This document shows, in pieces, positions 489-35,900 of a stretch of DNA of 38,487 nucleotides. The notes under the pieces are model-generated. The model had not been told where the DNA came from and did not search any database. It worked only from the letters and a program-made list of their open reading frames with translations. The first letter of the stretch is position 1. Every line of letters begins with the position of its first letter. Origin of the DNA: Patescibacteria group bacterium (GTDB lineage Bacteria; Patescibacteriota; Minisyncoccia; Minisyncoccales; Staskawiczbacteraceae); the NCBI GenBank assembly GCA_038065835.1, contig JBBTQB010000029.1, forward strand, positions 1-38,487, written 5' to 3'. The position numbers and the translations under genes were made by a program.

Positions 489-1031
489 TTAAAATGTAAA
501 TATAAACCAAGTTCCTGGATAACCTAGAATAAATAAGACGGTATTGATAATAAGCCACGAGCCCAAGACCAAAAGTATTCCCCACAATGTTCCCCATAAT
601 ATGCTTTTACCTGTGTCAAATAATTTAGGGTATGCTCCGCCGATTAGCAATAATATACCACCTATTATTATAAGTAGTCCAGCCAAAGGAACAGCTATGG
701 TCCAGATGACAAATTTGTAAATATTTAAAATCAGTATGAAAACATGATATAATTCGCAACGGCAAACAAGTTGAACATTACAAGAGACTCTTGAGCTGCA
801 AGAACTACATGGAACAGTGGAAGTAAATAGTCCAAAAACACCACCAGTAGTAGTACAAATAGTTTCTCTGCCGCAAGGAACTAATCCCTTTGTGCCTCCA
901 TTTGATTCATCACATATAGCTGTTGCCTGAGCCTGAGCCTGAGCTTGAGCCTGAGCCTGAGCTTGAGCAATTACAGGAGGTAAATTTAAAAGCAAAAGTG
1001 ACAATAGAAATAAAAAAAATATCTTTTTCAT
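489..1031 (-). CDS. Secreted Cys-rich protein with C-terminal TM helices, CPR T4SS-pilin-like (TrbC/VirB2-type)
   Basis: Signal peptide MKKIFFLFLLSLLLL, an (AQ)n linker, a Cys-rich segment, then two hydrophobic helices. The architecture matches 37406-38017 and 38086-38427. The family assignment is from memory of PF18895-type proteins. Confidence 0.55.
   Translation of the reverse strand: MKKIFFLFLLSLLLLNLPPVIAQAQAQAQAQAQAQATAICDESNGGTKGLVPCGRETICTTTGGVFGLFTSTVPCSSCSSRVSCNVQLVCRCELYHVFILILNIYKFVIWTIAVPLAGLLIIIGGILLLIGGAYPKLFDTGKSILWGTLWGILLVLGSWLIINTVLFILGYPGTWFIFTF
925..968. repeat. Hexanucleotide microsatellite (GCCTGA/GCTTGA)n encoding the (AQ)n linker
   Basis: About 7 tandem 6-nt units, read directly, lying inside the 489-1031 CDS. 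Confidence 0.85.
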
Positions 1032-1181
1032 ACAATATTAAATAGAAATTAGAAACTGGAAAATATAAGTTTTCATAATATATATGCCCCCAGAAGGACT
1101 TTCATCCCCCACAAATATTTGCCTTGTGCCTCCGGCACGACTCGAACGCGCAACTTATGGTCCGAAGCCATAAATGATATC

Positions 1182-1288
1182 CCCGCCTGCCTCGCTAGTG
1201 CCCTCGGAGGGACTCGAACCCCCAATAACAGGTTCGAAGCCTGTCGTGATATCCATTTCACCACGAGGGCTCGGCATAGGCGGGCAGG
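1182..1288 (-). mobile_element. Family-A GC-rich hairpin element (CCTGCCCGC...GCAGGCGGG) carrying a tRNA gene
   Basis: Its termini are the same as in the copies at 12794, 15152, 15627, 17001, 31991 and 36268. Here the interior is a full tRNA. Confidence 0.6.
1199..1270 (-). tRNA. tRNA-Arg(UCG), nested copy, no encoded CCA
   Basis: GCCCTCG-TG-GTGA-AATGGATA-TCAC-G-ACAGG-CTTCGAA-CCTGT-TATT-GGGGG-TTCGAGT-CCCTC-CGAGGGC-A. Confidence 0.8.
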
Positions 1289-1528
1289 CATTTCACCACG
1301 GAGGCAAATTTTTGTGGGGGACAAGCCCTCAATCTATGGTCAAAAGTCCGTATGTGTTATCTGATTATAGCATAGAGGCAATGTTAGCTAATAATACATT
1401 AAAAATTGAAAAAGAGCAAGAATTAAGATAATATGTACTAATTTCTAATTTCGAAATATTAATAAGTTTTAATAATTCGAAAATTCTAATTTTATTCAAA
1501 ATTCAGAATTAGAAATTCAAAATTTATC

Positions 1529-3169
1529 ATGACAATTCCTAAAGAAATCAAAGCTGTTATCTCAAAATTGCAAAAGGCTGGGTTTCAGGCCTACATTGTC
1601 GGAGGATGTGTAAGAGATTTTTTGCTTGAAACAGAACCCAAAGACTGGGACGTTGCCACTAATGCCAAGCCAGAAGAAATACAGAAAGTTTTTCCAAATA
1701 ACTTTTACGAAAATAGGTTTTTAACGGTCACAGTAAAAACTGGCCCCGTTAGAAACAGCCCGCCCCAAAGGCCCTCTGGGCGCGCTAGCGCGGGCGGTGT
1801 TTCTAACGGGGCTGGCAGCGGTATTAATGAGGTTGAAGTTACAACGTATAGGCTAGAAGCCAAATACTCCGATAAAAGGCATCCAGATGAGATAAGATTT
1901 GCAAAAACTCTAGATGAGGATTTAGAAAGGAGAGACTTTACAGTCAATGCTATGGCGATAAGTGTTCTAAATGATAGAAATGTTCTAGATGTTGTAAATG
2001 GAAAAAATCAAGCGGAGCGATTGAACAAGCGAGCAAGAGCGAGCGATAGAACAGTTAAAACATATACAACAGAAGTTGTGGATTTGTTTGATGGACAGAA
2101 GGATTTGAAAAATAAAATAATAAGAACAGTTGGCAATCCAGAAGAAAGATTTAACGAGGATGCTTTGAGAATGCTAAGGGCTGTTAGGCTAGCCTCAACA
2201 CTGGGTTTTTCCGCTAAAGGCGGACCAGCCTTAGGCTGGAAAATAGAACCAAAAACCGCAGAGGCGATTAAAAAAAACAGCACTTGGTTAGAGACTATTT
2301 CAAAAGAAAGAATCAGAGATGAATTTTTGAAGATTGTTATGTCAGACAATGCATCTGATGGCATAGAGTTGCTCCGTGAACTAGAGCTTTTAAAGTTCAT
2401 TCTGCCAGAGCTTTTAGAAAACTATGGAGTTGGCCAAAATAAACATCACATTTACGACTGCTATACCCATGCCTTAAAAGCTCTAGCGTATACTGCTAAG
2501 AAAAAGTTTAATGTGCACGTGAGGTTAGCTGCTCTTTTCCATGATATTGCAAAACCCAGAGTAAAAGCAGGAGAGGGAAAAGATTCAACATTTTACAACC
2601 ACGAAGTTGTTGGGGCAAAAATGACTTTTGAAATTTTAAACAGATTGAAGTTTTCTAAGAAGGATGTTGAAAAAATAACAAAGCTTGTAAGATATCACTT
2701 GTTTTATTACAATGTTGATGAAGTTTCAGAGTCATCGGTAAGGAGGCTTGTAAAGAATGTGGGGACGGAAAACATAGAAGAGCTTTTACAAGTAAGGCAA
2801 GCTGACAGGATTGGATCTGGCGTTCCCAAAGCCGAGCCCTATAAGTTACGTCACTTAAAATATGTAATAGATAAGGTTTCCCAAGACCCGATTTCAGCCA
2901 AAATGCTAAAAGCTAACGGAAAGGATGTAATGGATATTTTAAATATTCAGCCGGGACCTAAAGTTGGCCAGATATTGAGCGTATTGCTGGGATATGTATT
3001 AGAGGATCCAAAAAAGAATAGTAAAGAGTTCTTGGAAAAAGAAATCAAAAAACTAGGAAAACTTTCTGAAAAAGAATTAGAGAAACTTTCTGTAAAATCA
3101 AAAGAAGAAAGAATGAAAATGGAAACTAAAAAAGATGAAATGACAAAGCAAAAGTATTGGGTTACCTAA
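1529..3169 (+). CDS. cca: CCA-adding tRNA nucleotidyltransferase with C-terminal HD domain
   Basis: N-terminal GGCVRDFLL...DWDVAT polymerase-beta head motif. HD region ...AALFHDIAKP.... Lys/Glu-rich tail. It is needed because many tRNAs here lack an encoded CCA. Confidence 0.85.
   Translation: MTIPKEIKAVISKLQKAGFQAYIVGGCVRDFLLETEPKDWDVATNAKPEEIQKVFPNNFYENRFLTVTVKTGPVRNSPPQRPSGRASAGGVSNGAGSGINEVEVTTYRLEAKYSDKRHPDEIRFAKTLDEDLERRDFTVNAMAISVLNDRNVLDVVNGKNQAERLNKRARASDRTVKTYTTEVVDLFDGQKDLKNKIIRTVGNPEERFNEDALRMLRAVRLASTLGFSAKGGPALGWKIEPKTAEAIKKNSTWLETISKERIRDEFLKIVMSDNASDGIELLRELELLKFILPELLENYGVGQNKHHIYDCYTHALKALAYTAKKKFNVHVRLAALFHDIAKPRVKAGEGKDSTFYNHEVVGAKMTFEILNRLKFSKKDVEKITKLVRYHLFYYNVDEVSESSVRRLVKNVGTENIEELLQVRQADRIGSGVPKAEPYKLRHLKYVIDKVSQDPISAKMLKANGKDVMDILNIQPGPKVGQILSVLLGYVLEDPKKNSKEFLEKEIKKLGKLSEKELEKLSVKSKEERMKMETKKDEMTKQKYWVT
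1743..1812. repeat. Family-D GC-rich palindrome inserted in frame in cca
   Basis: Arms GCCCCGTTAGAAACAGCCCGC (1743-1763) and GCGGGCGGTGTTTCTAACGGGGC (1790-1812). It encodes about GPVRNSPPQRPSGRASAGGVSNGAG. The termini match those of the 5227-5545 element. Confidence 0.7.
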
Positions 3170-3321: not shown

Positions 3322-3531
3322 GGACCTGTAGTTAAATGGTAGAACAGCGCATTCGTCCCGATGGTGAAATTATTTTCACCATACGAGGATCCGCGATGGT
3401 TTTGGTGGGCCCGTGGTCTAACGGCATGACATCACATTCGCATTGTGGAAGTGGGAGTTCAATTCTCCCCGGGTCCACCAAAACTATCGGACATTGCGCA
3501 AATGGCGGTTCGATTCCGCCTAGGTCCACCA
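3322..3531 (+). tRNA. tRNA (Thr(CGU)-like) interrupted in the anticodon loop by a ~137-nt insert, CCA encoded
   Basis: The 5' part GGACCTG-TA-GTTAAATGGTAGAAC-A-GCGCA-TTCGT (3322-3356) and the 3' part AT-TGCGC-AAAT-GGCGG-TTCGATT-CCGCC-TAGGTCC-ACCA (3494-3531) form a cloverleaf. The anticodon call depends on the exact junction (CGT, or CGC/CAC). Confidence 0.55.
3407..3480 (+). tRNA. tRNA-Ala(CGC), nested copy, CCA encoded
   Basis: Acceptor GGGCCCG/CGGGTCC with G3:U70, anticodon arm TCACA-TTCGCAT-TGTGG, T-arm GGGAG-TTCAATT-CTCCC. Confidence 0.85.
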
Positions 3532-5125: not shown

Positions 5126-5189
5126 ACAAAATGCTAATTACGAGACCCGGTCTCGTCAACGAGACCGGGTCTCGTAATTAGCATTTTGT
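5126..5189. repeat. Perfect 29-bp inverted repeat with a 6-nt loop, containing the family-B core ACGAGACCCGGTCTCGT
   Basis: ACAAAATGCTAATTACGAGACCCGGTCTC - GTCAAC - GAGACCGGGTCTCGTAATTAGCATTTTGT. Confidence 0.85.
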
Positions 5190-5226: not shown

Positions 5227-5545
5227 CCCCGTAGAATTTAAATTACATCCGCCAAGGGCCGCGGGTCTCGTACTAAATCAGCTTTAGAAGCCCAAAAATG
5301 ATATGATTTCAAGGAGTAACGAGGAGACTTATCAGGCGGTCAGCGATAAGTCGACGAAGTTGCGACACAGAAATCAGCCATTTTTGGGCTCCCCCGAAGG
5401 GCGGGTGAATTCAGGCAAGATTCATCGTTGCTTGTCGCTCACAATGCGATTGCATTAGGCTCGCTCCTCGCGCCTTGAATCTTGCCTGAATTCTGACCGC
5501 TAAATTGATTCGGTACGAGACCCGCGGCCCAAGCTTCTAACGGGG
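5227..5545. mobile_element. ~320-nt multi-helix element (MITE-like, or an unknown structured RNA) with family-D termini
   Basis: Nested perfect helices: 5227-5236/5535-5545, 5256-5273/5513-5530 (18 bp), 5289-5300/5379-5390 (12 bp), 5407-5424/5476-5493 (18 bp), plus small hairpins. Confidence 0.5.
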
Positions 5546-6693: not shown

Positions 6694-6767
6694 GGGCTCA
6701 TAGTAAAATGGTATTACGCACCCTTCGCATGGGTGAAGTCCGGGTTCAACTCCCGGTGAGTCCACCA
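6694..6767 (+). tRNA. tRNA-Ala(CGC), second and divergent copy, CCA encoded
   Basis: Acceptor GGGCTCA/TGAGTCC with G3:U70, anticodon arm CACCC-TTCGCAT-GGGTG, T-arm CCGGG-TTCAACT-CCCGG. Confidence 0.85.
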
Positions 6768-9416: not shown

Positions 9417-9513
9417 TATAATATAAATTCGTAGTTAATCTTTTCTTTATGGATAGAAAAAAATTAGGAGACTTGCCCCCCACTAATTTTGATGGGAAAA
9501 TGGATAAACAAAC

Positions 9514-9945
9514 ATGAGCTGGGAAAATAGTTCAAAATTAGTGGGGGATAAAGGCGAGAAGATTGCCTGTGAATATCTTGTTGAAAAAGGGTATAAAATA
9601 TTGGCTAAAAACTATAGTATAAGTTTTGGAGAAATTGATATTATCGCTAAAAAGAAATGGAGATTTAAGAACTTATTTATAAGAAATCATTCAATAAACT
9701 CCGGGCAAGTTATCCACTTTATAGAAGTGAAAACTATTATTGACGCTGATAGTAGTTTTTTTCCTGAAGAAAGAGTAGATTTTAATAAGCAGAAAAAGTT
9801 AAGGCAAATGGCTGAAATTTGGCTGGAGAAAAACAAATTTTCTCAAAATCAGCCGTATCAAATTGATGTAGTTGGAATTCAAATAAATCAAGATATAAAA
9901 AAGGTAAAAATTAATTATTTCGAGAATGTTGTTGAAGATAAATGA
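9514..9945 (+). CDS. yraN: YraN-family endonuclease (UPF0102)
   Basis: GDKGEKIACEYLVEKGYKILAKNY...GEIDIIA...FIEVKT... matches the UPF0102 signature, with an internal insertion. Confidence 0.75.
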   Translation: MSWENSSKLVGDKGEKIACEYLVEKGYKILAKNYSISFGEIDIIAKKKWRFKNLFIRNHSINSGQVIHFIEVKTIIDADSSFFPEERVDFNKQKKLRQMAEIWLEKNKFSQNQPYQIDVVGIQINQDIKKVKINYFENVVEDK

Positions 9946-10102: not shown

Positions 10103-10177
10103 AAAGACTCTAAAGAGTGCAGGATTCGAACTATCATCAATCTGATGATAGTTCGAATCCTGCACTCTAATGTCTTT
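10103..10177. repeat. Complete copy of the 26-nt-arm palindrome (tRNA T-arm-like sequence)
   Basis: AGAGTGCAGGATTCGAACTATCATCA-ATC-TGATGATAGTTCGAATCCTGCACTCT, extended by AAAGAC/GTCTTT. Confidence 0.9.
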
Positions 10178-11986: not shown

Positions 11987-14020
11987 ATGCTAGTAGAATT
12001 TTTCCCTATTATTGTTTCGCTCTTTGCGATTGCTTTTGTTTGGTTTTTAGTGAAAAAAATCAGCAAAGCGCCAATAGCAAGAGACAAGGCAATTGAAATA
12101 ACTAAAGCTATTCAAGAGGGAGCTGTTGCCTATTTAAAGAGGCAGTATAAAACGGTAAGCATTGTTGCCGTTATTTTATTTCTGTTTTTATGGATTTTCA
12201 TGGGTCCAAAGATGGCATTTGGATTTTTGATTGGAGCTTTTTTGTCGGGATTGGCTGGCTTTATTGGAATGTGGGTATCAACACAAACAAATACAAGAGT
12301 TGCAGAAGGAGCAAAAAGAGGATTAGGCCACGCTTTAGATTTGGCATTTAAAGGAGGCTTGGTAACAGGGCTTTTAGTAGTAAGCTTAGGTCTTTTGGCA
12401 ATATCTGGATATTACTTTTTAACAAAGAATATTCAACCCCTTATTGCCCTGGGCTTTGGAGCTAGTTTAATTTCTGTTTTTGCCAGAGTTGGCGGTGGAA
12501 TTTACACAAAAGCGGCTGACGTTGGAGCCGATCTGGTAGGAAAAGTTGAAAAAGGAATTCCAGAAGATGACCCAAGAAACCCAGCTGTAATAGCTGACCA
12601 AGTTGGAGATAATGTTGGAGATTGTGCTGGTATGGCAGCTGATATTTTTGAAACCTATTCTGTAACAATAGTTGCCACAATGATTTTGGGTACTTTGTTG
12701 TATCCCGCATCTCCGCAGTTTGTATTACTGCCGCTATTTTTGGGAAGCATTTCAATTTTAACTTCTATTATTGGAAGCTTCTTTGTAAAATTACCTGCCC
12801 GTAATGCTTCGCATAGCGATGCAGGCGGGGGTAAGTCAAAAAACATTATGGGAGCCATGTACAAGGGCTTAGCTGTTTCGGTTGTGTTGTCTGCTATTGG
12901 TTTTTACCCCTTAATTTTAAAAATGATGGCAGGACAGGATATTTCAGTAATCAATTTGTATCTCTCAACATTGGTTGGATTAGTTATAGCTGCCGGAATG
13001 TTTGTCATAACAGAATACTACACCTCAAAGAGATATAGCCCAGTGAGGTCAATTGCCAAAGCTTCAGAAACCGGACACGGAACAAATATTATAAGAGGGC
13101 TTGGGCTTGGTATGCAGTCAACTGCTTTTCCTGTTTTGTTGATTGCGATTGGAACCGTTGTATGCTACTGGCTAGCTGGAATTTACGGAGTGGCTTTGGC
13201 AGTGATGGCAATGCTTTCCATATCTGGAATTGTTGTTGGTGTTGACGCTTACGGACCAATTACAGACAATGCAGGTGGAATTGCAGAAATGGCTGGGCTT
13301 CCAGAAGAAATAAGAAATATTACTGACTCACTAGATGCTGTAGGGAATACCACCAAAGCCGTAACCAAGGGCTACGCTATCGCTTCAGCGGGTTTGGCAG
13401 CATTAGTTTTGTTTGCTGTCTACAGCCAAGAAGTAATGAATTTAATGGGCTCAGCAAACGCTGTAAGCTTTGTCTTGGATAATCCAAAAGTGATTGCCGG
13501 ATTATTAATAGGAGGGCTACTTCCCTATTTGTTTGCCAGCTTCTTAATGGGGGCTGTCGGAAAAACCGCAGGCAAAGTTGTTGAAGAAGTCCGCAGGCAA
13601 TTTAAAAATATTGCTGGTTTGATGGAAGGCACGGCAAAACCAGAATACGGCAAATGCGTAGATATTGTAACCAAGGCAGCCATTAAAGAAATGATGGTAC
13701 CAGCTTTAATTCCGGTGGTAGCTCCAATACTAGTCGGGTGGATTTTAGGAGTTGAGGCTTTGGGAGGATTATTGATTGGATCAATTGTCACAGGATTGTT
13801 TGTGGGCATCTCCATGACTACTGGTGGAGCTGCATGGGACAATGCCAAAAAATACATTGAAGAAGGACACCACGGAGGCAAGAAATCATTCGCCCACCAA
13901 GCCGCTGTAACCGGAGACACCGTGGGAGATCCTTGCAAGGATACTGCAGGTCCAGCAATCAACCCAATGATCAAAGTGTTGAATATTGTTGCCCTCTTAA
14001 TAGTTTCTTTCTTGGTGTAA
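11987..14020 (+). CDS. hppA: Membrane-bound proton/sodium-translocating pyrophosphatase
   Basis: 677 aa, polytopic, with signature motifs …[20 protein letters not shown]…, …[17 protein letters not shown]…, …DNAGGIAEM…, …[25 protein letters not shown]. Confidence 0.9.
12794..12829 (+). repeat. Family-A hairpin element, 36 nt, in frame in hppA
   Basis: CCTGCCCG-TAATGCTTCGCATAGCGAT-GCAGGCGGG, encoding [12 protein letters not shown]. It is a GC-rich patch in an AT-rich gene. Confidence 0.75.
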
Positions 14021-15151: not shown

Positions 15152-15220
15152 CCTGCCCGCATTGCTACGCCAGCCCGACAGCCTAGCAGTCTTGGCGGCG
15201 GGCAAAGCGTTGCAGGCGGG
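15152..15220 (+). repeat. Family-A hairpin element, long (69-nt) intergenic copy
   Basis: CCTGCCCGC-ATTGCTACGCC...AAAGCGTT-GCAGGCGGG with an internal GCCCG...CGGGC sub-hairpin. Confidence 0.8.
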
Positions 15221-15237
15221 TGACATTTAAACATATT

Positions 15238-15570
15238 ATGGACTTAGTAAATAAAAAGATTCTTTCTCATAAGGAGATGGTAAAACTAAATGAGGAAGAA
15301 GTCAAAGATTATCTTTCCCAATTAAAAGATGGGTGGGAGTACCAACGAGACCCGGCCTCGTTGGTAAGAAAGGAGTTTAAGTTTGAGGACTTCGCGAAGA
15401 CGATGGAGTTTGTAAATAAAGTTGCAGATATTGCAGAAAAAGAAGGGCATCACCCTGACATCGCCATTCACTACAATAAAGTGGATGTCACCCTTTGGAG
15501 CCACTTTATAAACGGCCTATCAATCAACGACTTTATCATCGCCGCTAAGATCGATAATATAATTTTATAA
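15238..15570 (+). CDS. Pterin-4-alpha-carbinolamine dehydratase (PCD/DCoH family)
   Basis: ...FKFEDFAKTMEFVNKVADIAEKEGHHPDIAIHYNKVDVTLWSH... is the PCD signature. The GTG start in the track (15220) lies inside the repeat, so ATG 15238 is preferred. Confidence 0.8.
   Translation: MDLVNKKILSHKEMVKLNEEEVKDYLSQLKDGWEYQRDPASLVRKEFKFEDFAKTMEFVNKVADIAEKEGHHPDIAIHYNKVDVTLWSHFINGLSINDFIIAAKIDNIIL
15341..15365 (+). repeat. Family-B hairpin inside the PCD gene
   Basis: ACCAACGAG-ACCCGGC-CTCGTTGGT. It is nearly identical to the reverse complement of 22712-22734. Confidence 0.75.
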
Positions 15571-15626: not shown

Positions 15627-15686
15627 CCTGCCCGCCAAAGCCCCTGCCTGTGCGTATCCGCACGCAGACAGGTTGGCGCAGGCGGG
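15627..15686 (+). repeat. Family-A hairpin element, long (60-nt) intergenic copy
   Basis: CCTGCCCGC-CAAAGCCCCTGCCTGTGCGTATCCGCACGCAGACAGGTTGGC-GCAGGCGGG. Confidence 0.8.
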
Positions 15687-16349: not shown

Positions 16350-17666
16350 GTGAAAACTGCAAAAAAGGATTTAAGCAAATCGCAATTAGAAATAGAATTC
16401 GAATTAACCGCAGAAGAATTTAATGAATATGTTGATAGAGCCTTAGATCATTTAAAGTCTCATACAAAGATTGATGGGTTTAGGCAGGGACAAGTGCCGC
16501 GGGATTTGGTGGAAAAGAAAGTTGGGCAAGAAAACTTGCTAATGGAAGCAGGAGATTTGGCAGTTAAAAAAAGCTATGCAGGATATATAAATGAAAACGC
16601 CTTGGAACCCATTGGAAGACCCGAAGTGCAAATTAAAAAGATTGCGAAGGGAAATCCTTTTTTGTTTACGGTGAAAATTTCCATTTTGCCTGAAGTCATT
16701 CTGCCGAATTATAAAGAAATCGCCTCACAAGTAAAAGCAGAATCAATTTCCGTTGATGAAAAAGAAATTGAAGATGCCCTAAGTTATCTTCAAAAATCTC
16801 GTGCAAAGTTTTCGCAAATTGATCGAGGGGCAGAAGTAAAAGATTTTGTTGAGATTGAATATTCAAGCAAAGACATAAGTGATGGAAAAAAAATAAAAGA
16901 CAGATTTATTCTTGGTCAAAGCAGGTTTATGAGAGATTTTGAAGATAATATTTTGGGCATGAAAGCTGAAGACCAAAAGGAATTCAAAGTAAAGTTTCCA
17001 CCCGCCAGCAACGCTGAGCGTAGCTCTGCGGGCTGGGACAACGCGCCCAATAACCCTGGAGAAAAAGAAAGCACTTTTAAAGTAAAAATGGTCTCTGTGC
17101 AAAAAATAGAGTTGCCCGAGATTAATGATGAATTTGCAAAATCTCTTGGAGTTTTCGATAGTTTAGTTGCACTAAAAAGTAATTTGAAAGAAGGAATTAC
17201 AATGGAAAAGCAAGAGACCGAGAAGCAAAAAAAACAAGGCGAAGTTTTGAGTAATATTGCAGAGAAGATTAAATTTGATTTGCCAGAAAAAATGGTGGAG
17301 CTTGAAAAAGACAGATTATTACATGATTTAAAACACCAGGTTACAGAGCAGTTTAAAATGCCTTTTGGAGAGTACTTAAAGTCTGTTAAGAAAACAGAGG
17401 AAGAGATAAAGAATAATTATAAGCTGGATGCTGAAAAAAGGATTAAAAATTATCTTGTTTTAAGGCAGATTGGCAAGGCAGAAAATGTTGAAGTTTCAAA
17501 AGAAGAAATTGAGGAAGAAATGAATAAATTTATTAAAAATTATACAAAAGAGGAAGCAGATAAAATTGACATTGATCAACTAAAAGAGTATACTAAAGAT
17601 GCAATTATGAATGAGAAAGTATTTCAAATTCTTGAAACACTTTCTCAAAATTTTTTAAGTCGTTAA
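16350..17666 (+). CDS. tig: Trigger factor
   Basis: GTG start. N-terminal ribosome-binding region ...IDGFRQGQVP..., PPIase-like middle domain and C-terminal arms. Sits directly upstream of clpP, as is typical. Confidence 0.85.
   Translation: MKTAKKDLSKSQLEIEFELTAEEFNEYVDRALDHLKSHTKIDGFRQGQVPRDLVEKKVGQENLLMEAGDLAVKKSYAGYINENALEPIGRPEVQIKKIAKGNPFLFTVKISILPEVILPNYKEIASQVKAESISVDEKEIEDALSYLQKSRAKFSQIDRGAEVKDFVEIEYSSKDISDGKKIKDRFILGQSRFMRDFEDNILGMKAEDQKEFKVKFPPASNAERSSAGWDNAPNNPGEKESTFKVKMVSVQKIELPEINDEFAKSLGVFDSLVALKSNLKEGITMEKQETEKQKKQGEVLSNIAEKIKFDLPEKMVELEKDRLLHDLKHQVTEQFKMPFGEYLKSVKKTEEEIKNNYKLDAEKRIKNYLVLRQIGKAENVEVSKEEIEEEMNKFIKNYTKEEADKIDIDQLKEYTKDAIMNEKVFQILETLSQNFLSR
17001..17036 (-). 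repeat. Family-A hairpin element, 36 nt, reverse orientation, in frame in tig
   Basis: The plus strand CCCGCCAGC-AACGCTGAGCGTAGCTCT-GCGGGCTGG equals the reverse complement of the family consensus with 3-4 changes. It encodes PASNAERSSAGW. Confidence 0.65.
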
Positions 17667-20385: not shown

Positions 20386-20394
20386 ATATTTCTG

Positions 20395-20477
20395 TGCGCG
20401 GGACAGGAGTCGAACCTGCACGCCCGTGAGGGCACTGGCACCTCAAGCCAGCTCGGCTACCGTTACGACACCCGCGC
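20395..20477 (-). tRNA. tRNA-Leu(GAG), class II with a long variable arm
   Basis: Acceptor GCGCGGG/CCCGCGC, anticodon arm CTGGC-TTGAGGT-GCCAG, variable arm TGCCCTCACGGGCGT. Confidence 0.85.
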
Positions 20478-21174
20478 GTGTTTTTTGGCGTGCTATTGAT
20501 AATATATTTTCTATTTTAATTTTTTTTCTTTTTAAACAAATTACTTCACTATTGTAATAAATTCTTTCCAGTAATTTCAGAGATTCAGTCTTGGCGTACT
20601 TAAGTTGGTAAACTGAACTATTAATGCCTTTAGTAATGTGGCCTTTAATTTTTAAATTTTTTGTTATTGTTTCTTTAAGCCATTCCACATGATTCTTACT
20701 GGCAGAAACAAAAACTATATAAAACATAAAACTTGATCTCCATCGATTATCCCAATACGAGTACGATGAACCATCACCGTCAAAATGTCCCCGGAGAAAA
20801 TCAAAAAAATATTTTCTAGGAATCTTCAGCTTACTAAGAGTTTTTGATTTATTAGGAAATAAACCAATGCTTAACAAAAATTTATAAAAGTTTACATCTC
20901 CAAATTGTAATACATAATATTTCTTTTCCTCCTCTCCACCTCGAGCTTTTTTCCCAATTTTATTATTAAGGTTAAGACAAAGTTTGAAATTATCTATTTG
21001 CTCTTTGTCTTTTGAAGTAAAACTTATATGACGGCCATCTTTTATAAGACATCCATCGGTGGTAATCAGTCCTATTGCATAGGCTAGTTGAGGTGACCAT
21101 AGTGTTGATACTTTATTAAGGGGTTTCATTAGTTCATTATACCTCAAAGTATAAGTGAATACCAATCTTGTCAT
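20443..21174 (-). CDS. Free-standing double-motif LAGLIDADG homing endonuclease
   Basis: LAYAIGLITTDGCL and FLRGHFDGDGSS motifs. The 3' end of the ORF runs about 35 nt into tRNA-Leu. Confidence 0.8.
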   Translation of the reverse strand: MTRLVFTYTLRYNELMKPLNKVSTLWSPQLAYAIGLITTDGCLIKDGRHISFTSKDKEQIDNFKLCLNLNNKIGKKARGGEEEKKYYVLQFGDVNFYKFLLSIGLFPNKSKTLSKLKIPRKYFFDFLRGHFDGDGSSYSYWDNRWRSSFMFYIVFVSASKNHVEWLKETITKNLKIKGHITKGINSSVYQLKYAKTESLKLLERIYYNSEVICLKRKKIKIENILSIARQKTRAGVVTVAELA

Positions 21175-23343: not shown

Positions 23344-23349
23344 ATTTTG

Positions 23350-23422
23350 TGCTCCTGGAAGGGATCGAACCTTCGGCCGCCAAATTATAAGTTTGGTGCT
23401 CTAACCACTGAGCTACAGGAGC
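23350..23422 (-). tRNA. tRNA-Ile(UAU)
   Basis: Acceptor GCTCCTG/CAGGAGC, D-arm GCTC-AGTGGTTA-GAGC, anticodon arm CCAAA-CTTATAA-TTTGG, T-arm GAAGG-TTCGATC-CCTTC. Confidence 0.8.
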
Positions 23423-24084
23423 TTAATCTGTTTGTCAGATATGGCCTTGATCGCCATTAATATTTGCTCCGAGAATCTTGCATTATATACCCTTGCGTTG
23501 CATGTGCCATGCCCGAAAGTACCTTTTTGATTTATTCTTAAAAAAGAGCTCTTTTTTATGTAAGGTTTAGAAAATTGACTTTCTTTAACGTTTAGTATTT
23601 TTGCCCAAAAAGCAGTTTCTTTTTTAACATCCATATCTTCATAAAAGTGCATGGCGAATCTTATTTTGTGTTTTGGTATTTTTAAGACAACTTGAATCCA
23701 CTTGATAAAAAATATGATTACTGATGGATTGGTGTTTGAAAGAGATAAGTGTGTTAGAGATGTCTTTGTTCCCTCGCCCCAATAAAGAAACAGTCCGGCA
23801 ATAAAAACATCTCTTTTACCTAAAGGAAAAACATTCTTTTTCTGTTCGTTGTAGTACTTCAATAATCTTTTATCTTTTGTTCTTTTTCTGGTTTCCCTGT
23901 ACTTCTCAATGCGACTCTCATTATTTGCTCCTAACTCTCTAATTCTTTTTTTTGAAAGAGGATAGTCTCTAAGCCAAAGACTTAAACTGCTTTTACTAAC
24001 CCTCAGAATCTTCTTTATTTGACTATAACTCATTTCTTTTTTCCTAAGAGCCAAGGCTTTTTCTCGTTTAATGAAATGTGTCAT
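23413..24084 (-). CDS. HTH plus single-motif LAGLIDADG-like endonuclease family protein
   Basis: N-terminal HTH (MSYSQIKKILRVSKSSLSLWLRD) and the motif FIAGLFLYWGEGTK. The 3' end overlaps tRNA-Ile by about 10 nt. Confidence 0.6.
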   Translation of the reverse strand: MTHFIKREKALALRKKEMSYSQIKKILRVSKSSLSLWLRDYPLSKKRIRELGANNESRIEKYRETRKRTKDKRLLKYYNEQKKNVFPLGKRDVFIAGLFLYWGEGTKTSLTHLSLSNTNPSVIIFFIKWIQVVLKIPKHKIRFAMHFYEDMDVKKETAFWAKILNVKESQFSKPYIKKSSFLRINQKGTFGHGTCNARVYNARFSEQILMAIKAISDKQIKLL

Positions 24085-24234: not shown

Positions 24235-27200
24235 TTATTTTTTAAATTTAGAATTTGTTTGTGATTTAGAATTTGTAGTTTGAGATTTTTTGCCTATAAT
24301 ATTCTCAAACTCTTCCCTCTCTATTGTTTCTTTCTCAATTAGGGTTTTGGCAATTTTTTCGAGTAACTTTTTATGCTGCCTTACTATTTTTCCAGCTCTT
24401 ACTTCTTCACTTTTGATAATTTTTTCAATCTCTGCATCTATTTTTGTCGCCACTGCTTCAGAATAATTTCTTTGTTCTGATATTTCCCTGCCTAAAAATA
24501 CCAGCTCATCTCTGTCACCAAAAGATATTGGTCCCAAAGAAGACATGCCATATTCTTTCACTATTTTTCTGGTTAACTCAGATGCTTTAACCAAATCGTT
24601 TGAAGCACCTGTAGACATTTCACCAAATATCAGTCTTTCAGCTGAAAGTCCTCCTAACAAAGTGGCAATTTCAGCCAAGAATTGGGTCTTTGTTCTCATT
24701 TTGTTTGATTCTGAAGGAACTTGCAAAGTATATCCGCCAGCCATGCCTCTTGAGATAATGGATATTTTTCTTATTGGCTCTGTTCCGGGAATTGAGCTGG
24801 AAACCAAAGCATGTCCTGCTTCGTGATATGCAGCAATCTCCTTTTCTTTTTTTGATAAAATATGAGATTTCCTTTCAGGACCCAGTAAAACTTTTTCTAT
24901 TGATTCTAAAAATTCTCCCTGTGAAACCTGTGTTTTATTCCTTCTTGCAGCTAATAAAGCAGCTTCATTTGCCACATTTGCCAAATCAGCCCCTGAAAAC
25001 CCGGGTGTTCTTTCAGCAATTTCTTTGAAGTTTACATTAGAAGACAATGGCTTTTCTTTTGAATGGATTTTTAAGATTTCTTCTCTATCATGGACGTCTG
25101 GCAGATCCAAAACAATTTTTCTATCAAACCTGCCTGGCCTTAAGAGAGCTGGGTCTAAAATATCTCCCCGGTTGGTATTATGTAATAAGATTGGTTCCTC
25201 GCCGCCAAAAAATGCTTCATTATTACAACCGCAAAAGTCATATACATATCCGTTATAGGGAATTTTTTTAACGTTTTTTATCATTGGCCTTTCCACTGAA
25301 CCAGAAATTCTTACATCTTGATCTAATAAAGGATTTTGAGTTTTGCCGAAACCCAACCTCCATGCAATGCTTGTTTTCAATGGTTTACCATTATTAATTA
25401 CCCTTCCCTCTTTTGTTTTAAAAGAATGAATATACCCTTTAAATCCGTGCATTCTGAATAGCCAGTTAAGCTCTATGATCAGCTGTTTGCTCATAGAAGT
25501 AACTTCTCCTCTATCTCTTTTATCAATATGACCATCTCCATAAAAATATCCCTTAAAATACTCTTTAAAATATTCGAATGGTGCTTCAAAAAGGAAAGAA
25601 GGTACATGCTTATTTTTTGCCCCCTTGCCACAATAAAAAGAAAAGAAATTAGCTAGTGGGGTGCATTGGTACACAATATTTACCGCACTGTTGCTTGTCA
25701 GCCTTACAGTATGAGGTTCGATATTAAATATATTTTTCATTAACATTTTAACATCTTGTATTTTTGCAGTTTCCTTCCTATTGAAACAGAAGTCTACTTC
25801 ATTTCTTGCATATCCCTCGGCAGTATAGTAACCAAGAAGACGCATTAATTCCGGAGTAACTTTTACGGTTTCTGGCAAGACATTTTTATGCTGGTAGTAA
25901 TTCCTGGAAAGTTGCCTTGGTCCGCATATCCCTTGTTGCCATTTTCCAATAGTCCTCTGTGAAAATCCAAGATCTTTACCCAATTGGGTCTGGGAAATTT
26001 CACCAACGTGAGCTAAAGCATATTGATAATTAAAATGTATCGGCTCGAATCTTTCAAAAAGTGGTTGCCATACAGAAAGTTCAAGATTAAAACTTGTATT
26101 AAATGTATGCGCTCTAATTTCTTTTTTATGAGAAGTTCTATTAGCTTTATATGGCATGTTTACCAGAATGTCTCCTTGGACAAGGTCAGCAACTGCTTTT
26201 GTTTTTAATCCACTACGAGTTCTTACAAACACCGAATGGTTTCCGGTTGCTTTGATTTTTCCGCCAACATATTCAATTTCGTAAATTTCTTTTACTTTAT
26301 GCCGAAACACACTTCGCACCTTCTTGAAGGCACTATGAGAAAAGTAGACACTATTTTTATTGCGTCCAGTTAATATTTTTTTTTCAAACCCCAACACTTC
26401 AATTTCAGGAGAGTCTTTTTCTACATTTTCTTCACCCTCTTGGTAATAAGGATCAATAACCTGAGAAATTGGCAATAATTTGTAATTATTATTTTTCTTT
26501 ATTAGGACCTGGGTATCTTCAGTAACACTCGCTGCCATAACAATTACTCCAGACTCTCTTTCAAAACCATCCATTTCAACCAAAATCATATTTAATGTTT
26601 GCTCTCTCTCATCATGTCCTCCGCCAATTCCAGCTCCCCTGTGGCGCCCAATGGCATCTAGCTCATCAATAAAGATTATTGACGGGGAAGCTTTCTTTGC
26701 CATAGAAAATAAATCCCTCACTCTTGCCGATCCCACTCCAACAAACATTTCAACAAATTCTGACCCCGAAATGGAAAAGAATGGTACATTGGCCTCACCA
26801 CTGACGGCACGCGCCAATAAAGTTTTTCCCACTCCAGCAGCCCCTAAAAGCAGTACGCCCCTTGGTATTTTTGCTCCCATTGCTAAATACTTTTTGGGAA
26901 ACTTCAAAAAATCTACAATCTCTATCAGCTCTTCTTTAGCTTCTTTTAATCCTGCAACATCCTTAAAAGTTATTTTTTGTTTATCATGGCCCTCAGCTCC
27001 AAAAATTCTGGCTTTTGCCCTTGTAAAATCAAAAACTTGCATAGCCCCAGATTTTGTTTGCTTTAGCATTGTCCAAAGGAAAAATCCAATAAGAAGCAAT
27101 GGTAAAACCCCGTAAAGTAAAGCAGGAAACAACCAAGTCCACATGCTTTGTTGTTCTAGTTCAGCTGATATTTCAACTTTTTGTAATTTTACTGGATTAG

Positions 27201-27468
27201 CTCCCAAATTAACCAAAACTTCCGACAATACAGAGTTTGTCTCTTTCATTGAAATGGCTTTTGATTCATTATTATAAGTTATGGCTATGCTCTCGCCAGA
27301 AACAGCAATTTTCTTAACTTTATCCTGATTTATTTCAGAAACTAACTGGGAAATTGATATTTGATTTGACTCGCCTGTTGGAAAATAAAACAAGCTGAAA
27401 ACACCCCCTATGGCCAGGAATATTAGTACAACAAAAATAAAGTTTTTAATAAGTGGATTTAGTTTCAT
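24235..27468 (-). CDS. ftsH: ATP-dependent zinc metalloprotease FtsH, intein-containing
   Basis: Walker A GAAGVGKT, Walker [12 protein letters not shown] ...[12 protein letters not shown], zinc site HEAGHAL. The preferred start is MKLNPLIKN (27468). The track ORF extends to 27576 across the divergent promoter. Confidence 0.9.
25177..26529 (-). mobile_element. FtsH intein (451 aa) with a LAGLIDADG homing endonuclease domain
   Basis: The host sequence VIVMAA|...|[12 protein letters not shown] is interrupted. Intein blocks: SVTEDTQVL (Ser1), [17 protein letters not shown] and [15 protein letters not shown]...ILLHN followed by Thr+1. The codon phase was checked at both junctions. Confidence 0.85.
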
Positions 27469-27519
27469 ATTGACAATATAACACTCTTTTAAATATCTTT
27501 CAACCTCAAATAGGTGGTA

Positions 27520-27548
27520 TTGACACATTGTAGTGTATATGATATCAC
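27520..27548 (+). promoter_or_regulatory. Promoter TTGACA-N14-TGA-TATCAC, second copy of the shared block
   Basis: See 8439-8467. It lies between the divergent ftsH start and the orphan gene. Confidence 0.55.
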
Positions 27549-27650
27549 TAAAATAGTACCTCACATTACACTTCATGCGATTTTGCTCATACTTGTGGGT
27601 AAAATCGTGTGAAGTGTTTCGAGATTTCCCATTTCCGAAAGGATAAGTCC

Positions 27651-32964: not shown

Positions 32965-35900
32965 ATGGCTAAAGAAGAACCAGAAAAAATACAAGCAATA
33001 GGACAAGTAAAGAAAAGAGAAATAGTGCAAGAGCTTAAAGAGTCATACATTGACTACGCAATGTCGGTCATTGTTGCTCGCGCCCTGCCCGATGTAAGAG
33101 ATGGCTTAAAGCCCGTCCATCGCAGGATTTTGTTTGCGATGTTGGAGGAAGGATTACGACACAACGCAAAGTTGAGAAAGTCAGCAACCGTGGTGGGAGC
33201 TGTTTTAGGACGCTATCATCCACATGGAGACATTGCAGTTTACGACTCAATGGTAAGAATGGCTCAAGATTTTAATATGAGATATCCCCTTGTTCAGGGT
33301 CAGGGAAATTTCGGCTGTTTTACTAAAGATATTAAAGTAAAACTTACCGACGGAAGAGATTTAACATTTGAAGAGTTAGTAAAGGAATATCATCAGGGCA
33401 AGAAAAACTTTGCTTTTACTGTTGATAGTAATGGGAAAATAGTTATTGCAGAAATTAAGCATCCGAGAAAAACCATAGAAAACGCTCCAATCATTAAGAT
33501 AACACTAGATAATGGAGAAACAATAAAATGTACACTTAATCATAAATTCATGCTGAAAAATGGAACTTGTAAAGAAGCTCAATACCTGACTGAAGGAGAA
33601 TCGCTCATGCCTCTTTATACAAAACTTTCAGAACGAGAAAATGATATTAATTTAGGGGGCTATGAATTAGTTTTTCAACCCAATTCAAACTCATGGTATT
33701 TTACTCATATGCTTGCAGACGAATGGAATATTGAAAATAACGTGTATGAAAAATCACAAGGTAGAATACGTCACCATATAGATTTTAATAAATTAAACAA
33801 TAATCCTAATAATATAAAGAGAATCGGATGGAAAGAACATTGGCAAATACATTATACAATTGCTTCAAGGAGGCATAGTGAAGATGCTCTATATAGAGAA
33901 AAAATAGCAAAAGGAAGAAAAGATTTTTGGGCTAATGCTGAAAACAGAAAAAAACATTCTGAAAGAATGACCATAAGAAACATTAAGAATTGGAAGAAAA
34001 AAGATTATAGAGAAAATATGAGAGCATTTTTAAGTGAGATAAATAAAAAATACTTGGCAGAGCACCCTGAAAGAATTGAGGAAATAAGAAAAACTGCTTC
34101 AAAGACCATGAAAAGATTGTGGCAAATTCCAGAGTATAAAAGTCTATTTCATAAGAAAATTGTCGCAAGCAATAAAAGAAGGGTTACTAATCTAACAGGA
34201 AGGTCTAAATTTTTGAGAATCTGTAAATACTTATCAAACAATAACTTAGAGATAAATAAAGAAAATTATGAGAAAATCAGAGTAGATATTTTCGGAGGGG
34301 CATGTTTCACGACATGGGATTTAGGTATTGGCAAATACTTTAAAGATAATAAAGATTCAGTACTATTTTCAATCAATCAAAATCATAAAGTTATAAAAAA
34401 AGAATTTTTAAATAAAAATGAAGATGTTTATGACTTAACGGTGGAAGTAACTCATAATTTTGCTTTATCTTGTGGGATATTTGTCCATAATTCGAATGAC
34501 GGGGATTCGCCGGCAGCGCAAAGATACACAGAGGCGCGTCTTTCTTCTATAGGCGAAGCAATGTTGGCTGATATTGAAAAGGATACTGTAAACTTTGCAG
34601 ATAACTATGATGGGACAAGAAAAGAACCTACTGTCCTACCCTCTCCTTTACCTCAGCTTCTTTTAAATGGATCGTTGGGGATTGCTGTTGGCATGGCAAC
34701 TAATATACCCCCTCATAATTTAACTGAGTTGATAGACGCTCTCATTTATTTGTTGGATTATCCAAAATCAGAGACATCTGATTTGTTCCAATTTATACAA
34801 GGACCTGATTTTCCTACCGGAGGCGTAATTTACGACCAAAAAGAAATTATTTCTGCCTACTCTCAAGGTAAGGGCTCAATCATAATGAGGGGCAAAGCTG
34901 AAATAATTGAAAAAGAAAAAGATGGATCTGAACAAATTGTAATATCAGAGCTTCCTTATCAGGTTTTAAAATCCAGCTTAGTTGAGAATATGGCAAGTCT
35001 GGTTTCAGAGAAAAAGGTTGAGGGCATAAGAGACATAAAAGATTTATCAGATAGGCAGGGAATGGCTATTATTATTGATATTAAGAAAGGTTTTGATCCT
35101 CAGAGAGTTTTGAATAGGTTGTATAAGTTTACTAATCTTCAAAAAACATTCCATTTAAACTTATTGGCTCTGGTTGACGGAATCCAGCCAGAAATTCTTT
35201 CAATTTCTGATGTTTTAAAATACTTCATAGTGCATCGCACTGAAGTCGTAACAAGAAGGACTAAGTTTGACTTGGAAAGAGCTAAAGAAAGAGCCCATAT
35301 ATTAGAAGGATTAATGGTTGCCCTAAAAAAGATTGATGCTGTTATTGCCTTGATTAAAAAGTCAAGAGACCGGGAAGATGCAAAGAATAACCTAATCAAA
35401 AAATTCAGGCTTACTGAAAGGCAGGTAATTGCCATATTGGAAATGAAGCTGCAGACTTTAGCTGGATTAGAAAGAAAGAAAATTGAAGATGAGCTAAAAG
35501 AGATTTTAGAAAAAATCAAAGAATTTACCGCTATTTTAAAAAGTCCAGAAAAGTTAAAAAATATTATCAAGAAAGAGCTGCAGGAATTAAAGGAAAAGTT
35601 CGGGGACAAAAGGAAAACAAAAGTTATAAAGCAAAAATTAGGTGAAATTTCAGAAATTGACTTAGTGCCCTTAGAAGATACCATGGTAACTTTGACTACC
35701 GGAGGGTATATCAAAAGGATTAACCCAGCTACTTATAAAATCCAAAAGAGGGGAGGCAAGGGAATTATGGGAATGAAGACCATGCAAGACGATATTGTAG
35801 AACATTTCCTTTTTGCCTCGACTCATGATAACCTATTGTTTTTTACAAATTCTGGAAAAGTTTTTCAAACTCAGGTTTATGAAATTCCAGAGGGAACAAG

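Follow-up and report, generated by a model that had tools for sequence, protein, structure and literature searches.

Several described systems either insert into tRNA genes or interrupt them. Among the closest are the tRNA-targeting integrative elements (prophages and genomic islands with tyrosine integrases), which insert at the anticodon-loop or T-loop region and restore the gene, so that their entry does no harm. Here we describe a nested tRNA-Arg(UCG) locus on the minus strand of a 38,487-nucleotide stretch of DNA from a Patescibacteria group bacterium (contig JBBTQB010000029.1, assembly GCA_038065835.1, positions 1 to 38,487; referred to as the window). A 107-nt insert, made up of a complete tRNA-Arg gene between the two arms of a hairpin, splits the D-loop of a second tRNA-Arg gene, and both lie within the remains of a third. 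We put the probability at roughly 0.7 that the locus is a stack of three tRNA-Arg(UCG) generations, built by successive insertions of self-compensating hairpin-tRNA cassettes. The termini of the insert (CCTGCCCGC...GCAGGCGGG) define a hairpin family, denoted family A, which also has copies that carry no tRNA.

Like the integrative elements, the cassette would compensate for its own insertion into a tRNA gene. However, those elements are kilobases long, encode their own integrase and duplicate only the displaced 3′ part of the tRNA (attL/attR), whereas the cassette has ~ 100 nt, carries no enzyme gene, brings a whole tRNA, leaves both halves of its target as apparently dead flanks and also uses sites in the D-arm and inside the anticodon. 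Neither an integrase nor an attL/attR pair with a duplicated 3′ segment is found: the 107-nt unit contains no open reading frame (ORF) and each half of the target tRNA is present once.

Non-canonical tRNA introns of archaea, the split tRNAs of Nanoarchaeum and the intron 'transposition' of Thermoproteales likewise involve inserts in the D-, anticodon and T-arms, related insert families, GC-rich complementary flanks of the halves and several inserts per gene. The present nests differ in that they occur in a bacterium (trigger factor, FtsH, NusA), the insert is a complete cognate tRNA and the interrupted genes decay. The bulge-helix-bulge of archaeal-type tRNA introns is also absent from the junctions: these face one another at the foot of an unbroken stem of 10 bp that includes a C·A mismatch, and 3-nt bulges separated by 4 bp are lacking. 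Among the ORFs scanned in the 38 kb of genome in view, none matches a splicing endonuclease or an RtcB-type ligase, which may be encoded elsewhere in the genome. Group I introns in the anticodon loops of bacterial tRNA genes also interrupt tRNA genes and are mobile, but they are self-splicing ribozymes of > 200 nt confined to the anticodon loop; here the insert has 107 nt, sits in the D-loop and does not preserve the host gene. The initial annotation of this DNA, made from the sequence alone, had named a known intron class as a finding that would overturn its interpretation, but Rfam intron and ribozyme models gave no match at the nested locus (E ≤ 1).

The family-A copies without cargo are GC-rich hairpins of 33-39 nt that occur many times, in frame inside protein genes and between genes, and so resemble Rickettsia palindromic elements, repetitive extragenic palindromic (REP) sequences and REPINs, Correia elements and other MITEs (miniature transposable elements with inverted repeats). 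The in-frame palindromic insertion that marks the Rickettsia elements is seen in these copies, a likeness of layout and not of sequence relatedness. DDE-type MITEs share with the units terminal inverted repeats and multiple copies but produce a target-site duplication, which the nested units lack. REP/REPIN sequences mobilized by RAYT are extragenic and have a conserved 5′ GTAG tetranucleotide beside the hairpin, whereas family-A copies lie in ORFs and tRNA genes and have the termini given above in place of GTAG. We know of none among these families that has a functional tRNA or a rule of entering the gene that matches its cargo. The logic is that of inteins, homing introns and addiction modules, where an insertion in an essential gene neutralizes its own damage and is hard to lose; in the cassette the damage would be neutralized by a spare gene copy, not by splicing or an antitoxin. 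The hairpin-tRNA cassette appears to be a kind of mobile element that has not been described before, and neither nested tRNA genes nor this hairpin in Patescibacteria turned up in the full-text literature searched, of which coverage is incomplete.

Anatomy of the nested tRNA genes

Read from 5′ to 3′ on the minus strand, the Arg locus is composed as follows.

1390-1419, minus strand: promoter-like block TTGCTCTTTTTCAATTTTTAATGTATTATT, aligned and conserved upstream of the syntenic tRNA-Arg in the window, L207 and L006
1322-1379, minus strand: 5′ part of the layer 3 relic (acceptor, D-arm, anticodon arm, 5′ side of the T-arm)
1306-1321, minus strand: left arm of the family-C hairpin, TCCCCCACAAAAATTT, which wraps the middle tRNA-Arg (inverted repeat I14)
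1289-1305, minus strand: 5′ part of layer 2 (acceptor 5′ strand, D-stem 5′ strand, D-loop through G18; ARAGORN on the joined halves)
1271-1288, minus strand: family-A left arm and linker, CCTGCCCGCCTATGCCGA; the terminus recurs in at least 68 metagenomic units
1199-1270, minus strand: layer 1, inner tRNA-Arg(UCG), intact, CCA not encoded, presumed to be the functional gene (ARAGORN, Rfam)
1182-1198, minus strand: family-A right arm and linker, CTAGCGAGGCAGGCGGG (from the sequence)
1127-1181, minus strand: 3′ part of layer 2 (D-loop from G19, anticodon arm with G37, T-arm, acceptor 3′ strand)
1105-1126, minus strand: linker and right arm of the family-C hairpin, CAAGGCAAATATTTGTGGGGGA (inverted repeat, shuffle test)
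1085-1104, minus strand: 3′ part of the layer 3 relic, TGAAAGTCCTTCTGGGGGCA (remainder of the T-loop, T-stem 3′ strand, acceptor 3′ strand)

ARAGORN calls the inner gene (1199-1270) as tRNA-Arg(TCG), and it scores 66.7 bits against the Rfam tRNA model RF00005 (gathering score 29). All six conserved features that were checked are present (U8, A14, the D-loop GG, U33, TTCRA and G53-C61). By covariance score, conserved nucleotides and orthology with free-standing genes it is a canonical bacterial tRNA gene. The middle gene is obtained by joining 1305-1289 to 1181-1127; the resulting 72 nt are called as tRNA-Arg(tcg) by ARAGORN, a full cloverleaf with all four arms intact. The insert (1288-1182) separates G18 from G19 and consists of the family-A left arm, the inner tRNA and the right arm, the termini of which pair over 10 bp, including a G·U pair and a C·A mismatch. 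Its excision restores the tRNA exactly with zero extra bases, i.e. there is no target-site duplication. The middle gene is itself enclosed by a 20-nt, 95% inverted repeat (I14, 1105-1124/1302-1321) with a leader/trailer pairing score of 15.5 against a shuffle mean of 6.0 (p < 0.003; none of 300 shuffles was as strong). Both wrapped Arg layers have significant leader/trailer stems, which are not a common trait of the tRNA genes in the window, as the others there lack pairing of this strength.

The initial annotation had described these two genes, their termini and the surrounding inverted repeat, and all its statements about the sequence hold. It had missed that there is a third, decayed layer outside them. 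Removal of the whole unit 1321-1105, which splits a T-loop, joins 1379-1322 to 1104-1085 and yields a 78-nt tRNA-like sequence with 53/79 identity to the resident tRNA-Arg of the relative L006 (z = 8.9 versus shuffles; above the 99.9th percentile of all 78-mers of the window). It starts at the same spacing from the conserved block as the tRNA-Arg genes of L207 and L006, and within its acceptor the 1085-1104 part pairs with GCCTCTA at 1379-1373 (two G·U pairs). The relic has lost G18G19, its anticodon loop is degenerate (ACTTTTGA) and ARAGORN makes no tRNA call on the rejoined sequence. The Arg locus has three layers, namely a relic around a hairpin-wrapped middle tRNA-Arg around a hairpin-wrapped inner tRNA-Arg, and decay rises outward.

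Comparison with relatives indicates what preceded this arrangement. The genes beside the locus encode S15, a hypothetical protein and a CCA-adding enzyme; those for trigger factor, FtsH, NusA and GyrA follow at a greater distance, and the best protein matches assign the window to Candidatus Staskawiczbacteria (Patescibacteria/Candidate Phyla Radiation). Relatives with a CCA-adding enzyme 70-73% identical have one uninterrupted tRNA-Arg(UCG) at this position, downstream of the conserved 30-nt block. The inner gene is identical at 71/72 positions to the free-standing syntenic gene of L207, a Candidatus Staskawiczbacteria metagenome-assembled genome (MAG), and, having A37, agrees with the consensus of the clade. 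A second lineage, marked by G37, includes the middle gene together with those of L006, L010 and L132; the middle gene has no close match, its best identity anywhere being 0.85. The D-arm shared by the inner and middle genes, which had been singled out as significant, loses that meaning: it is found in at least 120 Patescibacteria genomes, a clade-wide feature of their tRNA-Arg(UCG) and not a trace of recombination. The block at 1390-1419 is presumed to drive the whole nested locus; a scan with the sigma-70 consensus makes no call for it, its -35 hexamer matching at 3/6 positions.

A second nest, ~ 2 kb from the first, involves tRNA-Ala(CGC) on the plus strand.

3322-3355, plus strand: 5′ part of the outer tRNA-Ala(CGC), through anticodon position 35 (ARAGORN on the joined halves)
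3356-3491, plus strand: 136-nt unit with a leader (small hairpin and arm CGATGGTTTTGGT), the inner tRNA-Ala(CGC) at 3407-3480 and the trailer arm (ACCA)AAACTATCGGA
3492-3531, plus strand: 3′ part of the outer tRNA-Ala(CGC) (ARAGORN on the joined halves)

The inner gene is called by ARAGORN, scores 58.9 bits with Rfam and is wrapped by an inverted repeat (I13) whose hairpin differs from those at the Arg locus. The outer parts (3322-3355 and 3492-3531) join to 74 nt called as tRNA-Ala(cgc), and the split falls inside the anticodon. Alanyl-tRNA synthetase requires the pair G3·U70, which is present in the inner gene and in a free-standing copy (6694-6767). The outer gene has A3-U70 instead and would by this loss be dead in its identity.

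Beside the Arg locus we noted some further features. Adjacency of tRNA-Arg(UCG) and CCA-adding enzyme (window 1199-3169; L131-L250) is kept across very divergent Patescibacteria, down to ~ 40% identity of the enzyme. The CCA-adding enzyme ORF of the window (1529-3169) contains a 70-nt GC-rich hairpin (1743-1812) and encodes 546 aa, compared with ~ 480-500 aa for most homologues, whose lengths also vary; this suggests that the gene family has translated hairpin insertions. The hypothetical protein on the other side (ORF 489-1031) has an (Ala-Gln) repeat near its N-terminus, encoded by a run of GCTCAG/GCTCAA hexamers (~ 925-975, minus strand).

Recurrence, host identity and mobility of the units

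A scan of the JGI metagenomes with the pattern CCTGCCCGC-N50-80-TTCRA-N10-40-GCAGGCGGG matched at least 120 loci. In at least 68 of them, nearly all in low-GC contigs, a whole tRNA in the orientation of the pattern is enclosed, which answers the suggestion in the initial annotation that other tRNAs between terminal inverted repeats be sought. Matches without a tRNA, among those listed, are mostly in GC-rich DNA and look like chance. Carriage by phage was rejected: the sole match in viral contigs is a chance one in DNA of 66% GC, with no tRNA. The 68 metagenome units among the matches listed and the unit of the window make up a set of 69, to which the counts of units and of their outer genes given here and below refer. 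The cargo covers 13 amino-acid identities and many anticodons (those named are Arg, Thr, Val, Pro, Gln, Leu, Ile, Glu, Cys, Gly, Ala and Asn).

The hairpin-wrapped tRNA lies inside a tRNA gene of the same identity in 69/69 units, always co-oriented and without target duplication. In silico excision gave a junction-spanning tRNA for 45 of these, 40 with the anticodon of the cargo; the five discordant calls and the 24 uncalled units are all cognate hosts further damaged by hairpins, small indels or truncations. Among related Gln units the anticodon is CUG or UUG, in each case that of the host, and in L055 the rejoined outer gene equals the inner gene except for one mismatch. Insertion sites are in the D-loop (once in the D-stem), in the anticodon loop from 34|35 to 37|38 and in the T-loop at 56|57, and the targets show neither a sequence consensus nor a duplication. 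The nests span deep lineages, because the CCA-adding enzymes of four nest-bearing contigs are only 48-54% identical to that of the window. An unbiased sample of 120 Patescibacteria loci (324 tRNA genes) contained zero nests and zero family-A hairpins; nests are rare and confined to genomes holding family-A hairpins.

Several pairs of units establish movement between hosts. The Arg(CCU) units of L050 and L111 are 97% identical in unrelated host half-genes and flanks, the homology stopping at the unit ends. The Thr(CGU) units of L080 and L107 are 95% identical, and their sites are the D-arm in one host and the anticodon loop in a different one. Two unrelated contexts share, at 98% identity, a family-A element whose cargo is not a tRNA. 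Near-identical units thus occur in unrelated hosts and at different sites, and therefore the units are mobile. There is no single mobile lineage of inner tRNAs, since inner genes of different loci resemble each other about as much as outer genes do.

These observations bear on two explanations that do without a cassette moving on its own, both of which we regard as unlikely. According to the first, nests arise by local duplication or rearrangement (slippage, unequal crossing-over) around an existing hairpin, after which the genes diverge or homogenize. Some inner genes are indeed closest to their own outer gene (0.90-0.99 identity), and tandem arrays of arm plus half-gene, at 99-100% identity, occur in L029, L084 and L110. 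L029 is an extreme case, with a unit inside a copy of itself, the outer gene wrapped in the same hairpin as the inner, and flanking tandem arrays. Its positions 2371-2978 hold 4.4 tandem 70-nt copies (left arm and 5′ half-gene with a further hairpin), an intact Arg(CCU) unit and then two copies of 3′ half-gene plus right arm; upstream of these are an older layer and a tandem pair of hairpins without cargo. Repeated blocks of 3′ half and arm are also found in L055, L084 and L110. Local duplication does not fit the near-identical units of unrelated hosts and differing sites, whose homology breaks off precisely at their ends, nor the nature of the outer genes, 34/40 of which are of the ordinary free-standing type without arms. 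Only 6/40 have family-A arms, so self-insertion, possible as L029 shows, was rejected as a general origin. Many compensated stem changes separate the inner gene of the window from the middle one; the two belong to the A37 and G37 lineages, respectively, and have different hairpin families. Where inner and outer genes are highly identical, the cores are the same and the acceptor stems differ by compensated changes, which fits gene conversion between the nested repeats better than recent duplication. This pattern suggests such conversion, and the nested loci are recombinationally active.

The second explanation holds that a cassette never inserts alone and that only entire nest-bearing alleles are passed on, in allelic replacement or homing, with homologous recombination running through the outer half-genes and the DNA beside them. 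The same-identity rule, the co-orientation and the lack of target duplication would follow automatically. Related loci that share an insertion site (L021/L030, L085/L093 and L026/L060) are in keeping with it, and homing endonuclease genes are common in these genomes (LAGLIDADG in the window, GIY-YIG beside tRNAs in relatives). However, the L080/L107 units occupy different arms of the host tRNA, the host sequence of L050/L111 differs up to the unit boundary with no flanking tract co-transferred, and the many independent origins (at least 13 amino-acid identities, several sites each) are left unexplained.

Family-A termini are enriched in the window. With up to one mismatch, CCTGCCCGC and GCAGGCGGG have 11 and 9 matches compared with ~ 2.5 expected (0/100 shuffles reach the observed numbers). 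The initial annotation had recorded the termini in hppA, gyrA and tig, and complete hairpins are present in all three genes.

12794-12829, plus strand: cargo-less family-A hairpin, 36 nt, in frame in hppA (12 residues translated)
36268-36300, plus strand: cargo-less family-A hairpin, 33 nt, in frame in gyrA
17001-17036, minus strand: variant family-A hairpin with one mismatch, CCAGCCCGC...GCTGGCGGG, 36 nt, in tig
15152-15220, plus strand: family-A hairpin, 69 nt, with a GC-rich hairpin nested at the apex, upstream of the pterin dehydratase gene
15627-15686, plus strand: family-A hairpin, 60 nt, with a hairpin nested at the apex, at the start of the peptidase S51 gene

Family-A elements of ~ 100 nt with non-tRNA cargo (65 nt) were seen in L015, L025, L028, L045, L047, L054, L074 and L129; several share the target form TYNGA|T (e.g. 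...TTCGA|TATTC...). Both these and the cargo-less copies occupy tolerated neutral sites, where no tRNA-carrying unit was found.

Other hairpins in the window include one at 9477-9547, with arms CCCCCACTAATTTTGA/TCAAAATTAGTGGGGG related to those of the middle gene, which spans the start of the UPF0102 gene; family C thus has at least two copies here. A perfect 26-nt palindrome (AGAGTGCAGGATTCGAACTATCATCA and its complement) lies at 10114-10168 in the repeat-rich, AT-rich spacer upstream of nusA. One of its arms resembles a tRNA T-arm and acceptor 3′ strand, and it may be another tRNA relic. ACGAGACCCGGTCTCGT is the basis of a second hairpin family, seen at 5126-5189, 5256-5530 and 15336-15360; one copy belongs to a 31-nt palindrome that is perfect, and the pterin dehydratase ORF contains another. 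A 25-nt inverted repeat (92%) spans 5256-5530.

Homing-type genes are also present. Both gyrA (32965-36684) and ftsH (24235-27576) contain inteins (Intein_splicing domain), that of FtsH with a LAGLIDADG domain; gyrA holds an intein as well as a family-A hairpin. A free-standing LAGLIDADG endonuclease-like ORF (20443-21174, minus strand) ends in the 5′ part of tRNA-Leu(GAG) (20394-20477, minus strand), and in the relatives L006 and L010 small GIY-YIG ORFs adjoin tRNA genes. An ORF with an HTH_23 domain (23413-24084, minus strand) overlaps by 10 nt the 5′ end of tRNA-Ile (23349-23422, minus strand), whose anticodon UAU is unusual for bacteria; in L010 a similar HTH ORF adjoins tRNA-Lys. We considered the LAGLIDADG ORF, the UPF0102 nuclease-like ORF, the HTH ORF and RNase Y as candidate enzymes, but nothing ties them to the hairpins.

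Fate of the interrupted genes

Inner and outer genes differ in their state of preservation. Among the 40 pairs compared, every inner gene has 6/6 conserved nucleotides, whereas the outer genes average 5.62/6 (p = 0.004), with fewer pairs and more G·U than the inner genes. A further 24 of the 69 outer genes are unrecognizable, either truncated or struck by further hairpins.

The initial annotation had offered two readings, an element that destroys and replaces its target, and a precursor that is processed into an inner tRNA and a split outer one. The second would make the unit an intervening sequence at the RNA level: the inner tRNA is released, the outer halves are ligated or used as a two-piece tRNA, and both genes work. 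Several features speak for it. Many outer genes, that of the window included, form a full cloverleaf despite 25-35% divergence from the inner gene; the insertions are almost only in loops; and the arms form a stable stem that brings the halves together (the native 226-nt RNA of the locus has a predicted folding energy of -109 kcal/mol, z = -6.6). Against this, the outer genes look dispensable, given the 24/69 that are truncated or multiply disrupted, the decayed outermost Arg gene and the outer Ala gene without G3·U70. The cargo always has the identity of the host, which is needed only if the host gene is dead. Across 249 loci and 488 tRNA calls, excision of single hairpins uncovered no tRNA gene that holds a hairpin but lacks a nested replacement. 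Some sites fall inside the anticodon triplet and would demand exact excision and ligation, and we know of no bacterial route by which ends made by RNase P and RNase Z are exactly rejoined. The lack of a bulge-helix-bulge motif and of an intron family match has been described above. The family-A hairpins in protein genes have 33 or 36 nt, and the gyrA, hppA and tig ORFs run on continuously through them (33, 36 and 36 nt, respectively), as expected if they are translated and not spliced.

Because the inner genes are intact and the outer ones decayed, no unreplaced hairpin is found, the ORF hairpins are in frame and no intron model matches, the data speak for a DNA-level insertion by which the host gene is lost, and against a split tRNA. 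We consider RNA-level removal, taken as the general explanation, somewhat less probable still than the two explanations discussed above, although for young nests such as the middle gene of the window it stays conceivable. As it stands, that gene does not qualify as a functional one, interrupted as it is by an insert for which we know of no removal route.

Assembly chimerism or chance resemblance, which the initial annotation had named as a possible refutation and which three short contigs from other assemblies that begin inside the inner tRNA (window 1214-1241) might suggest, can practically be dismissed, since the full locus is identical in three assemblies from different sources and the architecture recurs in at least 68 independent metagenome contigs. 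Positions 1031-1530 match an NCBI MAG contig (L001) and an ENA contig (L002) at 100% identity, and three further assemblies match part of this region. The three contigs that begin inside the inner tRNA (L003, L004 and L005), from independent assemblies, start at window positions 1239, 1241 and 1214, respectively. Most simply, and likely, these breaks reflect k-mers shared with the near-identical tRNA-Arg genes of co-occurring relatives; heterogeneity within the population at this locus is an alternative cause.

The proposed cassette and its significance

The reading that we prefer is that of a mobile, self-compensating cassette. It would be a non-autonomous unit of ~ 100-130 nt, namely a whole tRNA gene with its leader and trailer paired in a terminal hairpin. 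Its point of entry would be the D-, anticodon or T-arm of a resident tRNA gene that matches it in identity and orientation; the target would not be duplicated, and the resident gene would be destroyed. The cargo would then be transcribed from the resident promoter. The inner Arg gene has no promoter of its own inside the unit, and the co-orientation of 69/69 nests fits expression from the host promoter. By analogy with standard bacterial tRNA processing, RNase P would cut the 5′ end of the cargo and a 3′ nuclease the other end, and Arg genes without an encoded CCA would be completed by the CCA-adding enzyme encoded next door. The hairpin arms would let the inner tRNA fold apart from the outer halves, to which it is homologous. 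The cargo tRNA would take over decoding while the broken shell decays, such that the inner gene is probably expressed and processed and the outer genes are probably inactive. Since the element would carry the only working copy, the host could not lose it unharmed and the insertion would be self-compensating.

Applied to the window, this reading requires at least three insertions: the ancestral Arg gene would have received a family-C hairpin unit in its T-loop, the first Arg replacement a family-A hairpin unit in its D-loop, and tRNA-Ala(CGC) a unit with a third kind of hairpin in its anticodon. Of the two readings in the initial annotation, the destroyed and replaced target is the one that the evidence supports, through the cognate hosts in 69/69 units, the mobility, the decay of the outer genes, the loss of G3·U70 and the third layer.

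A number of points weigh against this reading. Genes for a transposase, a recombinase or a reverse transcriptase are absent from the 38-kb window, and neither the window nor the 1.7 Mb of loci searched contained an autonomous element that shares the ends. A DDE transposase is unlikely because there is no target duplication. An exact empty site was not found either; a 32-mer across the uninterrupted outer D-loop and anticodon arm, a check proposed in the initial annotation, had no match in metagenome or genome contigs. The middle Arg gene is still a perfect cloverleaf with all the conserved nucleotides checked, and taken alone looks either recently disrupted or still under selection. With 38 kb of the genome in view, another tRNA-Arg(UCG) may exist elsewhere. 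The metagenome pattern demanded family-A ends and a T-loop motif, and the sample that it yields is unfit for estimating frequencies. Finally, the placement of all tRNA-carrying units in cognate genes and none at neutral sites lacks a mechanistic explanation. Targeting of stem-loop loops in general was rejected, as 4/20 non-tRNA family-A sites are in hairpin loops compared with 3.3 expected.

Random insertion followed by selection fits this placement poorly, because neutral sites are tolerated and yet hold no tRNA-carrying unit. Targeting directed by the cargo, or tethering of the donor to the homologous gene, would be the most economical idea. Our best guess is that pairing between cargo and target guides or tethers insertion and that purifying selection removes non-cognate events. 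More tentatively, and in our estimation less likely than not in this strong form, the tRNA cargo could act as a homing device: it would pair, as DNA or RNA, with the resident gene of matching identity, a trans-acting enzyme would then insert the unit, and a change of cargo would retarget it.

If the cassette reading is correct, an element of ~ 100 nt without an enzyme gene persists in essential single-copy genes by bringing the replacement with it. Bacterial tRNA genes can then look 'split' or 'intron-bearing' without any splicing, and tRNA annotation in these genomes may miss or miscount genes. The match of cargo and target in all the listed units points to targeting guided by homology or structure, which may be reusable as a tool. 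Stacked relics at one locus would amount to a datable fossil record, and the cassettes would provide a concrete mechanism for the turnover and horizontal replacement of tRNA genes in the streamlined genomes of Patescibacteria. Should the cargo indeed prove to be a homing device, tRNA turnover would be continual across Patescibacteria, which would explain why related genomes have dissimilar syntenic tRNA genes.

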